A stretch of DNA of 64,000 nucleotides from Eubacteriales bacterium (GTDB lineage Bacteria; Bacillota; Clostridia; Oscillospirales; CAG-272), in contig JAZUKN010000102.1 in NCBI GenBank assembly GCA_045643285.1, positions 45,996-109,995 of the forward strand, written 5' to 3'. Made by a program: the position numbers and the translations under genes. Numbering within the stretch: the stretch's first letter is position 1; each line of letters opens with the position of its first letter. Below the pieces are notes generated by a model that saw only the letters and a list, made by a program, of their open reading frames with translations, was not told where the DNA came from and did not search any database. Below are positions 49,511 to 59,592 of this stretch, piece after piece.

Positions 49511-52500
49511 ATGAAAAAAATTTTATCACTCGTACTCGTCGCAGTTATGCTCATCAGCCTTATGCCGCTGAGCGTTTTTGCAGACGGAAAAGCAACAGGC
49601 TACGGCTTGAAGCTCGTTATCAGCAAGGATACCGAGACTTTCAAAGAAGCCGAAAATGCTGTTTCCAAGACCGTTCTCAGACTTGACATTATGTATACGT
49701 CAGGCTCAAACGAGTCGACTTCTCAGCTTCTCAGCGTTGACTACGATGCAACGAAGCTTGAAATGCTTGATTTGTCTGATGATCCAGACTTTTTCGGAAT
49801 ATCAGGAGAGTATGACTTGACAAACTATTATACATACAGTGACGACACTGCAAGTACCTATGTTCGTAAGGGCAAAGAGTACTACACTAAAGCTTCAAAA
49901 ACCGCTAAAAGAGATATAAATGAGCTTTGCTTCTACTCGATTATCTCTAACGGCATCGGATATATGACATTCCACATCACCGAAGGAAGCGGAGCATTGC
50001 CGTACAATAAAGAAGTTACCGGTTCCGACTATTCGACGCTCGCTTCCGTTTATTTCGCTCTTAAGGAAGGCGTATCGTTCGATGATCTTCCGACAGACCT
50101 TTTCTGGTTCTCGGATCTCTCCGAAGATAAGGATATTACAAAGCAGAGCAACGCGATCAGTATTTCCGACGGTAAAGTACTTTACGCATGGGGATGCATT
50201 GACTCGGCTGACGATACACTGGACATCTCTCCCGAATTCACTCCCGGTGAAGGCGTAACGTTCCACACTGAAAAGGTCGACGCAGTTGCTCCCGTTATTT
50301 CCGCTCAGCCTACCGGCAGCGAATATATCAAGGGCGCGACCGCAGAAGCACTTTCCGTGACTGCAAGCGTTACCGACGCAGGTACTCTTTCCTATAAGTG
50401 GTACAAGAATACCGAGAACAGCACGACAGGCGGAAGCGAAGTCGGTACGGAAGCGACATACACACCCGCCACAACTGACGTCGGCACGGCTTACTACTTT
50501 GTAGTCGTAACTAATACGAATGATGCCGCAACAGGCACAAAGACCGCGTCCGTCACAAGTAACGCAGTCGCCGTTACCGTTTCCGAAGATCCCGATGTAC
50601 TTGCTCTCAATGCAGCGGCAGAGGCGATCAAGGATCTCACATACGAAATGGCTCAGGCTGACGCTACTGATGAAGCCGCAATAAAGACATTCATCAAAAC
50701 GACCGCAGAAGCCGCTATCACAAACGGCGTAACGGTTTCCGAAGTCACGAAATCCTCCTATACGCCTGCCGTAGCCGGAACGAGTGCCGCTCCTGCAGGT
50801 ACAAACGGAACGTATGAGTTCACACTGACTCTCTCGAAAAACTCCAAAACTCTTTCTCCTGATGCATTATATACACTTACTATAAAAGCAACCGCTTTCA
50901 CAGGTACAACAGACGTACAGGCAGTAGCCGCAGCTAAGGCGGCGATCAAAGACGGCGAAGCAAACGTATCCTTTAAGGCTGATGCCGAAGAAAGATATAC
51001 GAAAGTAAAAGCACTTGTTGATTCTCAGCTCACCGGAGTTACAGAATCTAAAGGCGTTGCAATAGTAATTGAACTAAAATCGAATAATGTTTATACAGTT
51101 AAATTGTCCAAGGGTTCTGTAAATGACGCTAAGGACATCACAGTAACATTCAACGAAGCTCCCGACCCGAATATCGCAGTGGCAGATGCCGCAAAGACGG
51201 TAGCAAACGGGGCAACATACTCCGAAACAACACAGGCGAAAGCTCCCGATGAAGACGCAGTCAAGGCTGAAGTTAAAGAGACAGCCGAGACAGCAGTCAA
51301 TAACAACGATGTCACGGTAGAGATCGTAAAGGTTTCCTATACAGCTCCGGAAGCAGGAACAAGCGCAAAGCCTGCCGGAACAGACGGCGAATTTAAGTTC
51401 AAAGTCAAAGTCACAGCAGGTGAGATCACAAGAGAGACCGACGAAAAGACAGTTGTGATCAAAGCTACTGTATACGACGGACTTACAGACAAACAGGCAG
51501 TTGCAAATGCAGTTGAAGCAATCGGCAAGATTAAATGGGATGACATTGCACAGGCTGACGGCAACACCGAAGAAAAAGTTAAGACGCTCATTGAAAATAA
51601 GCTCGAAGACATCGACTATGCAGACATCACAGTCACTGTTTCCGACTTCACAGCCGCAGTTGAGGGAACAGCCGCAACATCACACGAAGGCACAAACGGC
51701 TCGTTCAAGTTCACCGTAAAGGTTCAGAAGAACGCCGAGAACGCAACACCGATCACCGATAAAGAGCTTGAGATCATTGCAACCGAGTTCAAGGGTGTGC
51801 TTGATACAGATGCAGTTGCAGCCGCTAAAGACGCGATCAAGGACGGCGAAGTAATTGTTCCGTTCGGCTCAGACCAGGCAGCAAAGACAGCAGCAGTTCA
51901 GAAGCACATCGACAGCTATCTCACAGGCGATGCAGAGGGCGTAAAGGCTGAGATCACAGGCGTTTCCGGCAACGTTTATACAGTTAAGCTCACAAAGGGC
52001 GCTGTTGTAGATACAAAGGACGTTACAATTACCGTAACAGAATCGGCTGACCCCGATATTGAGATCATCGCCAATGCTGTAAAGTCTGTCGAGGAAATCA
52101 CATGGCAGGATGTACCCGATACAGTATTCAATACAGAAGATGGTGCAAAAGAGTATGTGGAAAATGCTGTTAAAAACGAAATTAAAAATGAAGAAATAGA
52201 CGTAACAGTAATCACCAATCTCTTCACAGCCGCAGTTGACAGTAACGCCGCATCAAAGGACCACAAAGGAACAGACGGTATCTTCAAATTCGATGTAAAG
52301 CTCATAAAGGGACTTCAGTCCGGAGAAGATAAAGACAATACTATAAACATTCTTGCGCAGGACTACGAAGGACTTCTTGACTGTGAAGCAGTAGCAAACG
52401 CAGTTGAAGCAATTGGCAAGCTCACATGGGAAGACATTGCACAGGCTGACGGCAACACCGAAGAAAAAGTAAAGACGCTCATTGAAAATAAACTCGAAGA

Positions 52501-58278: not shown

Positions 58279-59592
58279 ATGAAAAAAATTCTTTTTGCAT
58301 CACTCGTTGCAGTACTTGCGGTAATTCTTGCAATTTCAGCATTTGCCGCGTCCACCGACCACGGAATCAGACTCAGTTTATGCGAAGACAGCGAGAAATT
58401 CCCCGGTAAAACCGTTGTCAGACTTGATCTTATGTATTCGCCTTTCTCGAATCCCGTTGCATCGCAGGACGTCAATATCACATACGACGCAACAGTGCTG
58501 ACTCCGCTGTTTGTTCGGAACGGTGAAGACGCATCCGACAGCGCGGATAGCTTTTACGATAACACCGCATCTGTTTTCGTTGACAAAACGAGATTTTCGA
58601 CCTCCGATTTCCCGACAAAAAACGAAGAAGTGTACTTCTATGCGCTGATTTCCGACGGAAAAGGATATATAAGCTGGAATGTGGCTGAGTCGTTCAATGT
58701 TTCTCCTTTCAGTGAGTACAAAAACCTCGGTTCGGTCTATTTTGCGCTAAACGGTAAGGATTATTCTTCACTCACCGAAAAAGATATCGGTTTTTCCGAT
58801 ATATCGGTCGACAGCGCGATCACCTGCCAGTCGGCGGCGGTTTCGATCTCCGACGGCAGAGCGATCTATTCTTACGGCGGATTCGGCGTGGATACACTGA
58901 CCGTTAAGCCGGAAGTTGTTTTTGTGGGACAGAAAATCGCATCGGGCAGTGATACACCGGAGCAGAAGACCGAGCAAATAACCGAGCAAATAACAGAAGA
59001 AAAACAGTTCACGCTTCCCGAAGACAGCGAAAAAGAGTGGGAAAACCCGTTCGCAGACGTTTCGGAAAAGGATAAGTTTTACACCGCAGTCCGCTTTGTG
59101 TATGAAAACGACCTTTTCAAAGGTGTGTCCGCACATAAATTTGCACCGGAAACCACAATGACGAGAGCGATGTTCGTAACGGTCCTCGGACGGCTTGACG
59201 GCGTGAATGAGAAAGAATACACAAAAATCTCGTTCGACGACGTGAAGAAGGATGAATGGTATACCGCATACGTCGGCTGGGCTGCTGATAAGGGCATCGT
59301 AAACGGATACGGAAACGGCAAATTCGGTGTTGACGATAAGATTACCGTAGAGCAGGCAACGGCGATTATAGCCCGTTACGCGCGTTATAAGAAGCTCACA
59401 ACTGAGGGGACAGCCGATCTTAAATCCTATAAGGACGGCGCAGATGTGTCCGACTGGGCAAAGAGCGATATGTCGTGGGCACTGTCCTCCGGCATCTATC
59501 AGCCCGAGAATGGAAAACTCACTCCTAAGTCTCCCGCACCGCGCTCCCTCGTCGCAACAATGATCTACGGATATGTGAAATATAAACAGTAA
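58279..59592 (+). CDS. SLH-anchored surface protein with a cohesin-like N-terminal module (paralogue of both ends of the giant protein)
   Basis: Signal peptide MKKILFASLVAVLAVILAISAFA. The N-terminal module aligns with the 49511 protein (RLDLMYSP...ITYDATVLTPL; FYALISDGKGY; LGSVYFAL). Three SLH repeats are present. It starts 8 nt after the upstream stop, with a GAGG RBS. Confidence 0.88.
   Translation: MKKILFASLVAVLAVILAISAFAASTDHGIRLSLCEDSEKFPGKTVVRLDLMYSPFSNPVASQDVNITYDATVLTPLFVRNGEDASDSADSFYDNTASVFVDKTRFSTSDFPTKNEEVYFYALISDGKGYISWNVAESFNVSPFSEYKNLGSVYFALNGKDYSSLTEKDIGFSDISVDSAITCQSAAVSISDGRAIYSYGGFGVDTLTVKPEVVFVGQKIASGSDTPEQKTEQITEQITEEKQFTLPEDSEKEWENPFADVSEKDKFYTAVRFVYENDLFKGVSAHKFAPETTMTRAMFVTVLGRLDGVNEKEYTKISFDDVKKDEWYTAYVGWAADKGIVNGYGNGKFGVDDKITVEQATAIIARYARYKKLTTEGTADLKSYKDGADVSDWAKSDMSWALSSGIYQPENGKLTPKSPAPRSLVATMIYGYVKYKQ

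Follow-up and report, generated by a model that had tools for sequence, protein, structure and literature searches.

Three consecutive plus-strand genes in an uncultured gut Clostridia bacterium raise the question of whether two wall-anchored proteins, the products of genes A and C, are receptors for the dockerin that ends the product of gene B, which lies between them. The genes were taken from the list of open reading frames (ORFs) of a stretch of 64 000 nucleotides (GenBank assembly GCA_045643285.1, contig JAZUKN010000102.1, positions 45 996–109 995 of the forward strand), here called the window and numbered from its first letter; the genome that holds it, G000, is a metagenome-assembled genome (MAG) of 2.3 Mb in 106 contigs, 96% complete. 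We consider it probable that the locus encodes a non-cellulosomal surface-display system made of a type-II-like (anchoring) cohesin and an X-module–dockerin (XDoc) cassette, whose pairing is predicted.

From their sequences, A and C are predicted to be secreted proteins with a triple of S-layer homology (SLH) repeats. The first-pass annotation had described a homologous N-terminal module of about 200 residues (the head) in both proteins, and an SLH triple at both C-termini, and each of these was reproduced (Table 1). The SLH regions are 59% identical over 180 residues (E = 3e-71), with the three repeats visible in the alignment, while the heads are 36% identical in an alignment over 248 residues (E = 2e-32) that covers the segments quoted in the annotation, and 40% identical when the head modules are compared by themselves. 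For a surface protein anchored in this way, three tandem SLH repeats were found together with the genomic capacity for wall-polymer pyruvylation: G000 has 54 matches to SLH, and among its genes is one for a polysaccharide pyruvyl transferase (PF04230, E = 1.4e-39; a broad family, and supportive only). Gene A is the more elaborate of the two, with a signal-peptide-like start, the head, an immunoglobulin-like (Ig-like) domain, approximately 1000 residues of degenerate repeats, then an FN3-like domain, a further Ig-like domain and the three SLH repeats.

A structural model was built with AlphaFold2 (AF2) for the C head only, from a 19-sequence alignment and without templates, and the fold of the A head is taken from this model of its paralogue. 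The model is all-beta, with a predicted local distance difference test score (pLDDT) of 90.7 and a predicted template-modelling score (pTM) of 0.88, the five models lying between 89 and 91; an earlier run on a two-sequence alignment was unusable (pLDDT 54). A Foldseek comparison of the C head model with the PDB returned cohesins for all of the top 50 matches (probability 1.0, E from 2.4e-6 to 2e-3), with TMq values of 0.33–0.55 and TMt values of up to 0.60. The best of these were type II cohesins from SdbA, ScaA and ScaB complexes (5k39_A, SdbA 2bm3, 4fl4_K, 5m0y_A, 4u3s_A, 2b59_A and 1tyj), with TM-scores of 0.48–0.60 and approximately 15% sequence identity. Type II cohesins are marked by an extra alpha-helix between strands 6 and 7 and by beta-flaps that interrupt strands 4 and 8; in the C head model, where strand numbers could not be assigned, DSSP gave short helices at residues 74–77 and 152–159 and broken strands near residues 51–68 and 165–176. 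The cohesin-like beta-sandwich proposed in the annotation thus finds support in the predicted fold, by which the head would have a cohesin fold that has diverged strongly or gained embellishments, closest to the type II cohesins. Positions conserved in the family include R25, D27, E94, Y98, Y107, W110, S129 and F132 of the C head.

The head belongs to a rare sequence family. An exhaustive search of 1.84 billion representative proteins with a hidden Markov model (HMM) of the head found 21 relatives (clusters), in nearly all of which the head lies directly behind the signal peptide, and most of the full-length relatives end in SLH repeats. No model in NCBIfam, PHROGs or Pfam covers it, and a word-indexed homologue search with the head returned near-identical or short proteins only; the earlier suggestion of an undescribed type is borne out to the extent of this rarity and the lack of a Pfam or NCBIfam model. 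The head also occurs fused to a plain dockerin, in an adaptor layout (P0019), and in short SLH proteins with no stalk (C and P0009), and such fusions to an anchor (SLH) or to an adaptor element (dockerin) are modular contexts typical of cohesins. P0019, a protein of 291 residues (L019 5682–6557 and L020 5242–6117), consists of the head and a dockerin of the conventional type (Pfam 52 bits); its gene comes right after X-dockerin genes. In two small head proteins that lack SLH repeats, P0018 and P0020 (L022, L014–L016), the C-terminus is instead a beta domain of some 100 residues (…VIVAAY.ADGL…VKAF.W…), which has no annotation and no Pfam match.

The product of gene B was described as a transglutaminase-like/leucine-rich repeat (LRR) protein, and the Pfam scores of its transglutaminase-like core and of its BspA-type LRR region (Table 1) agree with that description. 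In the core, Cys209, His237 and Asp252 lie within VCAGY, NHAWN and YHVD motifs and by these motifs would form the catalytic triad; NCBIfam adds a partial match to a MAG6410-type transglutaminase-related model. The core match and these motifs place B in the transglutaminase-like cysteine protease superfamily, with a putative activity. The duplicated calcium-binding dockerin at the C-terminus was likewise confirmed, with a Dockerin_1 score above the cut-off, and its repeats, DADGNGSVNPGD and DVNGDGVVNPSD, have D or N at loop positions 1, 3, 5 and 9 and D at position 12. The annotation is to be amended in one respect: the dockerin forms part of a type II X-module–dockerin dyad, as the profile matches described below indicate. 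The complete XDoc cassette, of approximately 165 C-terminal residues, consists of an Ig-like/CarboxypepD_reg-like module (…SYNP…GTYDLVVTK.GH..YTV…DIDLT) followed by the two-repeat dockerin, which ends …NINK…C.F.Y.

When a profile of this cassette (A4) was compared with the PDB sequences, the best matches were to the ScaA XDoc of Acetivibrio cellulolyticus (4wi0_B, E = 3.5e-12; 4u3s_B, E = 1.1e-11), the alignments beginning in the X module, at profile position 5 or 2, respectively, and continuing through the second dockerin repeat (position 150–159). Further matches were 2b59_B, 3kcp_A and 5g5d_B, which are C. thermocellum CipA XDoc chains, and 5k39_B (positions 4–149). On these sequence matches, the cassette is homologous to type II X-module–dockerin dyads. 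In the PDB complexes, the chains matched by the XDoc profile are bound to just those cohesins that lead the Foldseek list of the head. This reciprocity was reached by two independent methods applied to two different proteins, and no other single argument for a type-II-like pair is as strong.

The gene neighbourhood of the head points in the same direction. Loci were collected from metagenome and genome contigs, in part with a six-sequence sub-alignment of the head, and their neighbouring genes were scanned with the head and XDoc HMMs. An XDoc gene is the immediate neighbour of the head gene in 10 of 11 dereplicated loci (L029 included), and lies 8–21 nt from it in the window (B–C) and in L015, L017, L018, L019/L020/L021, L022, L026, L027 and L028; the heads of these loci are only 26–41% identical to the C head of the window. 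The order in L018 is head–SLH, XDoc and a second head, and in L029 there are XDoc genes on both sides of the head. L029 (SFDG01000106.1) is a 5-kb contig binned in a Bacteroidota MAG labelled Phocaeicola plebeius, and is most likely a mis-binned Clostridia contig. L026 (GCA_052831745.1) echoes the arrangement of the window: it encodes a transglutaminase-like XDoc protein, an XDoc protein of 370 residues and then a giant head–SLH protein. There follow, at positions 15893–24790 of the same locus (JAZMFG010000139.1), the gene for a 2628-residue LRR_5 protein with a different, ordinary dockerin and, without a gap, that for P0035, an adaptor with a Pfam-positive cohesin and an XDoc. Here, within the loci themselves, the gene of a socket directly follows that of its cargo, and the arrangement implies a multi-tier assembly of SLH–head, XDoc–cohesin adaptor and dockerin cargo.

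By the genome census, G000 contains two heads (A and C), five full and at least two fragmentary X-dockerins (the fragments at contig ends) and no canonical cohesin, so that the better partner elsewhere in the genome, which the annotation had named as a possible objection, was looked for and not found in this 96% complete assembly. Every Dockerin_1 match above the cut-off in G000, in five proteins, belongs to the one XDoc cassette, and the head HMM run across all six-frame ORFs of the genome returned A and C only. The absence of canonical cohesins is meaningful because they are common among the relatives, being present above the cut-off in 19 of 41 genomes of the window's genus and order. A second genome, G041 (an ‘uncultured Oscillibacter sp.’ MAG), has two heads, exactly four XDocs, all directly upstream of heads, and again no canonical cohesin. 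The head itself was absent from all 40 sampled relatives and is therefore patchily distributed rather than lineage-wide.

The XDoc cargo of G000 (contigs C2, C44, C63, C25 and C102) comprises B, a CHAP + Flg_new + LRR_5 protein, a second Transglut_core protein, a protein of 3451 residues, for which the BspA-type LRR call was made from the sequence by eye, and a secreted protein of 297 residues. The last, encoded on the minus strand of C102 (112016–112906), approximately 2 kb past the end of the window, matches the XDoc profile better than any other protein of G000, and its N-terminal domain goes unrecognized by Pfam. The full X-dockerin genes on the other contigs lie at C2:26364–28742, C44:11250–12746 and C63:4913–15265. 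Four of the five full proteins were scanned with Pfam, and no glycoside hydrolase, carbohydrate esterase or polysaccharide lyase domain was found in them. The proposal that the system is non-cellulolytic is upheld by the lack of a glycoside hydrolase in the proteins scanned, and a cellulosome or amylosome was rejected because there was no CAZyme among them. The proposal of a self-contained three-gene module was also abandoned, since the cargo genes are scattered: at least five X-dockerin proteins over four contigs would share the two heads.

A number of observations weigh against pairing the head with the XDoc cassette, or against the head being a cohesin at all. The cohesin fold rests on the predicted model of the C head, the TM-scores to known cohesins are about 0.5, and the head carries some 40–50 extra residues. 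The Pfam Cohesin model (PF00963) reaches 19.5 bits on the C head (E = 0.0012), below its 24.1 cut-off and over residues 57–114 only, has no match on the A head and matches at all in just one of the 19 family members. The head profile matched no PDB sequence at E ≤ 10, a single-sequence search being likewise of no use, and HHalign of the head against six canonical cohesins of related genomes gave a probability of 0.2, with just the ‘YDxxxL’ strand aligned. The resemblance of this strand to cohesins, on which the annotation had drawn, is consequently without statistical significance at the sequence level, and because the HHalign result is not significant we do not claim sequence homology between head and cohesins. 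As to the pairing, the head locus of P0006 (L023–L025, on short contigs) shows no X-dockerin neighbour, and two genomes of the same genus, G015 and G017, have the XDoc cassette (five and one, respectively) with no clear head detected, so that strict pairing does not hold, unless there are sockets that have diverged further. In G015 (L037–L040), the XDoc lies near the N-terminus of proteins of approximately 600–720 residues in four of five cases and is C-terminal in the fifth. Two ORFs of its locus L039 (9896–11326 and 11829–16304) resemble the head weakly, and only in its C-terminal half (E = 2e-5 and 0.04), and may be a more divergent socket.

Could the head, then, have another function? In A and most of the large homologues, the head forms the far N-terminal end of a very long stalk, the place that adhesin tips take. 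There a cohesin fold might, instead of receiving a dockerin, serve as an adhesin tip or bind a ligand, for example glycans of the host or the diet or the surface of another cell; the adjacency of the genes would then reflect co-regulation and the XDocs would attach elsewhere. The missing cohesin signal in the sequence and the XDoc cassettes of G015 and G017 are compatible with such a tip, but all 50 of the best structural matches are cohesins, with no carbohydrate-binding module or adhesin among them, and the head is also carried by the stalk-less proteins C and P0009. Moreover, two genomes with X-dockerins have no other possible cohesin, and the 8–21 nt spacing recurs at loci whose heads have diverged to 26–41% identity with the C head. 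On this balance we think an adhesin tip fairly unlikely. That the whole resemblance is an artefact of prediction or chance, and that A, B and C are three unrelated surface proteins, we regard as highly improbable: the first model, from two sequences, was indeed poor and the family alignment has only 19 members, but all five models from the deeper alignment reached pLDDT values of 89–91 without templates, the homology of the XDoc to type II dyads is seen at the sequence level and is independent of the head model, and the conserved synteny is independent of both.

A different objection is that the heads do bind dockerins but are one tier only, A and C being narrower in scope (binding, for example, only B), while an undetected, more divergent cohesin anchors most of the XDoc cargo. 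Such a cohesin could have been missed in a 106-contig MAG that is 96% complete, and cohesins that Pfam does not detect have turned out to be common (PMC13463774). There are also two flavours of dockerin in G000, distinguished at repeat positions 9–12 as N-P-x-D (B, C102b and C2) or N-G/A-x-D (C63, C44 and the fragments); the dockerins that adjoin heads in other organisms mostly have T/N-E-x-D. Against this, the six-frame search yielded no head besides A and C, and two heads and two dockerin flavours already match in number, so we hold a hidden main anchor to be distinctly unlikely. The two flavours may, speculatively, be a specificity code for the two paralogous heads. This leads to a more far-reaching version of the cohesin–XDoc reading, which we put forward tentatively, as a serious possibility: that the head is a distinct, unclassified cohesin class with a type-II-like fold and no detectable sequence tie to types I–III, limited to some 20–30 clusters among 15 billion proteins, co-evolved with one XDoc cassette and the sole cohesin–dockerin system of some gut Oscillospirales-like bacteria, in which the A (stalk) and C (wall) heads could each read one dockerin flavour (NP-x-D or NG/NA-x-D) in a two-tier, address-coded display.

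Table 1. Positions of genes, protein modules and transcription signals of the locus, numbered from the first letter of the window.
Feature	Position	Strand	Description
Promoter-like site of gene A	49427..49455	+	TTGACA-17-TATACT, TG extension; 11/12 consensus matches; consensus match only
Gene A, 1717 aa	49511..54664	+	Signal peptide, head, Ig-like, repeat stalk, FN3-like + Ig-like, three SLH
Head module of A, residues 25–245	49583..50245	+	Head HMM E 1.9e-60
Three SLH repeats of A, residues 1529–1710	54095..54640	+	Pfam SLH 58.7 bits
Intrinsic-terminator-like hairpin and T-rich tail, 3' of gene A	~54697..54742	+	
Promoter-like site of B–C operon	54763..54791	+	TTGACA-17-TATACT, TG extension; 11/12 matches
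Gene B, 1142 aa, cargo	54842..58270	+	Signal peptide, transglutaminase-like core, three BspA-type LRR blocks, X module, dockerin
Transglutaminase-like (papain-fold) core of B, residues 160–253	55319..55600	+	Pfam Transglut_core PF01841 36.5 bits (cut-off 23)
BspA-type LRR region of B	~56273..57721	+	Pfam LRR_5 224 bits, three stretches; NCBIfam HupY/LrrG-like adhesin, partial
X module of B, ~residues 978–1073, Ig-like/CarboxypepD_reg-like	57773..58060	+	Conserved in all XDoc cassettes; homologous to 4wi0_B and 4u3s_B X modules
Dockerin of B	58061..58267	+	Two near-symmetric Ca-binding repeats, DADGNGSVNPGDVMNIRFASNIN and DVNGDGVVNPSDVLIVRLSTNIN; Pfam Dockerin_1 28.8 bits (cut-off 22.9)
Gene C, 437 aa	58279..59592	+	Signal peptide, head, TEQ-rich linker, three SLH
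Head module of C, residues 24–215	58348..58923	+	Predicted cohesin-like jelly roll (AF2)
Three SLH repeats of C, residues 253–432	59035..59574	+	Pfam SLH 72.5 bits
Bidirectional terminator-like hairpin, 3' end of B–C operon	59600..59637	.	

The transcription signals around the three genes (Table 1) suggest how the parts of the proposed display system would be produced. A terminator-like hairpin and a second strong promoter-like site separate A from B, and for this reason gene A is predicted, from these consensus sites, to be a transcription unit of its own, apart from a B–C operon. An AGGAGG lies approximately 7 nt ahead of the ATG of gene A. The spacing of 8 nt between B and C given in the annotation was reproduced exactly, from the stop codon of B (58268–58270) to the ATG of C (58279), and a GAGG lies upstream of the C start; the hairpin that ends the operon is common to gene C and a converging gene (59649–62219). 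B and C would accordingly be co-transcribed, with translational coupling probable, and the cargo would therefore be produced jointly with its socket. The near-perfect promoter-like site is identical ahead of A and B, which suggests strong and possibly co-ordinated expression. Within gene A, positions 51473–51772 and 52364–52663 are an internal duplication with 87% DNA identity and an offset of exactly 891 nt (297 codons), and a third, partial copy is found at 53126–53202 (70% identical); this duplication in the stalk could be a hotspot of recombination or of assembly.

In the mechanism that we propose, the SLH triples would fix A and C to the pyruvylated wall polymer and their heads would bind the XDoc cassette in a putatively calcium-dependent manner. 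A cohesin binds its dockerin on the 5-6-3-8 sheet, with high affinity and dependent on calcium; for the heads, such binding is predicted, with indirect support from the synteny and the genome census. The cell surface would thereby mount transglutaminase-like (Cys-His-Asp) enzymes, BspA-type LRR adhesins and a CHAP amidase, which gene C, with its short linker, would hold near the wall, and gene A at the tip of a stalk of approximately 1300 residues.

The closest known arrangement is that of Acetivibrio (Clostridium) thermocellus, in which the SLH-anchored type II cohesins of SdbA, OlpB and Orf2p bind the X-dockerin dyad of CipA. In gene C, as in SdbA, a signal peptide is followed by a single cohesin-fold module, a linker of low complexity and three SLH repeats. 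The SdbA cohesin structures (2bm3 and 2b59_A) are among the best structural matches of the head, and the cassette has the CipA XDoc chains (2b59_B, 3kcp_A and 5g5d_B) among its best matches in sequence. However, the head differs from the type II cohesins in having no detectable sequence similarity to them (approximately 15% identity in the structural alignments) and in being some 40–50 residues longer; gene A, in addition, carries it on the long stalk, and the cargo here consists of transglutaminase-like, LRR and CHAP proteins, whereas that of SdbA, OlpB and Orf2p is a cellulase scaffoldin. The pairing of the ScaA XDoc with the cohesin Coh3 of ScaB in A. cellulolyticus (4u3s, 4wi0) is similar in that it provides both the best XDoc sequence match, over profile positions 5–150, and cohesin chains (4u3s_A and 4wi0_A) among the top structural matches of the head. 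It belongs, though, to an elaborate cellulosome, and the ScaB cohesin, unlike the head, is seen by Pfam and CDD profiles.

With regard to the cargo, the nearest likeness is in Ruminococcus flavefaciens, in which group-4 dockerins, on peptidase proteins and on small cohesin-bearing scaffoldins, bind the wall-anchored ScaE cohesin (PMC5301203), and five of six group-4b dockerins are on transglutaminase-like proteins (PMC5301203, PMC2930009). In strain FD-1, SIGN-transglutaminase-like-Doc and SIGN-LRR-Doc genes are arranged in operons, and a conserved region precedes the group-4b dockerins that they encode (PMC2930009). As proposed here, a single wall-anchored cohesin gathers non-glycosidase dockerin proteins (the ScaB and CttA XDocs and peptidase-, transglutaminase-like- and LRR-Doc proteins), but ScaE is a type III cohesin anchored by sortase at an LPXTG motif, rather than by SLH repeats, and R. 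flavefaciens is cellulolytic and has hundreds of dockerins, compared with the 5–7 of G000, among which no glycoside hydrolase cargo was found. Near-symmetric dockerin repeats, such as those of B, permit dual-mode binding in other systems (PMC5301203). AF2 screens of Ruminococcus from humans have brought to light cohesin families invisible to HMMs (Minor et al., mBio 2026; PMC13463774); they resemble the head in being cohesin folds with embellishments that were found by structure prediction, but come from cellulosomes and amylosome-like systems, with no SLH context reported and with type-II-like cohesins rare in ruminococci (PMC13463774). By description, the head differs in being type-II-like, SLH-linked and XDoc-paired.

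The principle is thus already known in its parts: SLH-anchored type II cohesins with XDoc partners, a wall-anchored cohesin with non-glycosidase cargo, and cohesins that HMMs do not see. What is new is the rare head family, the way in which it and a type-II-like XDoc cassette point to each other, the almost constant adjacency of the genes and the set of cargo proteins. The locus provides a concrete, testable case for the recent realization that many cohesins escape sequence profiles, and it comes with a named partner, a gene-neighbour rule and a small, defined set of cargo. Cohesin–dockerin pairs also serve as orthogonal parts for protein assembly, for which a new pair without cross-similarity to types I–III would be of help. 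Current genome annotation reports none of the links between head, XDoc cassette and cargo, which together point to a way in which gut Clostridia that are uncultured and do not degrade fibre could attach transglutaminase-like enzymes, as well as adhesins with BspA-type LRRs, to a surface built on SLH repeats.

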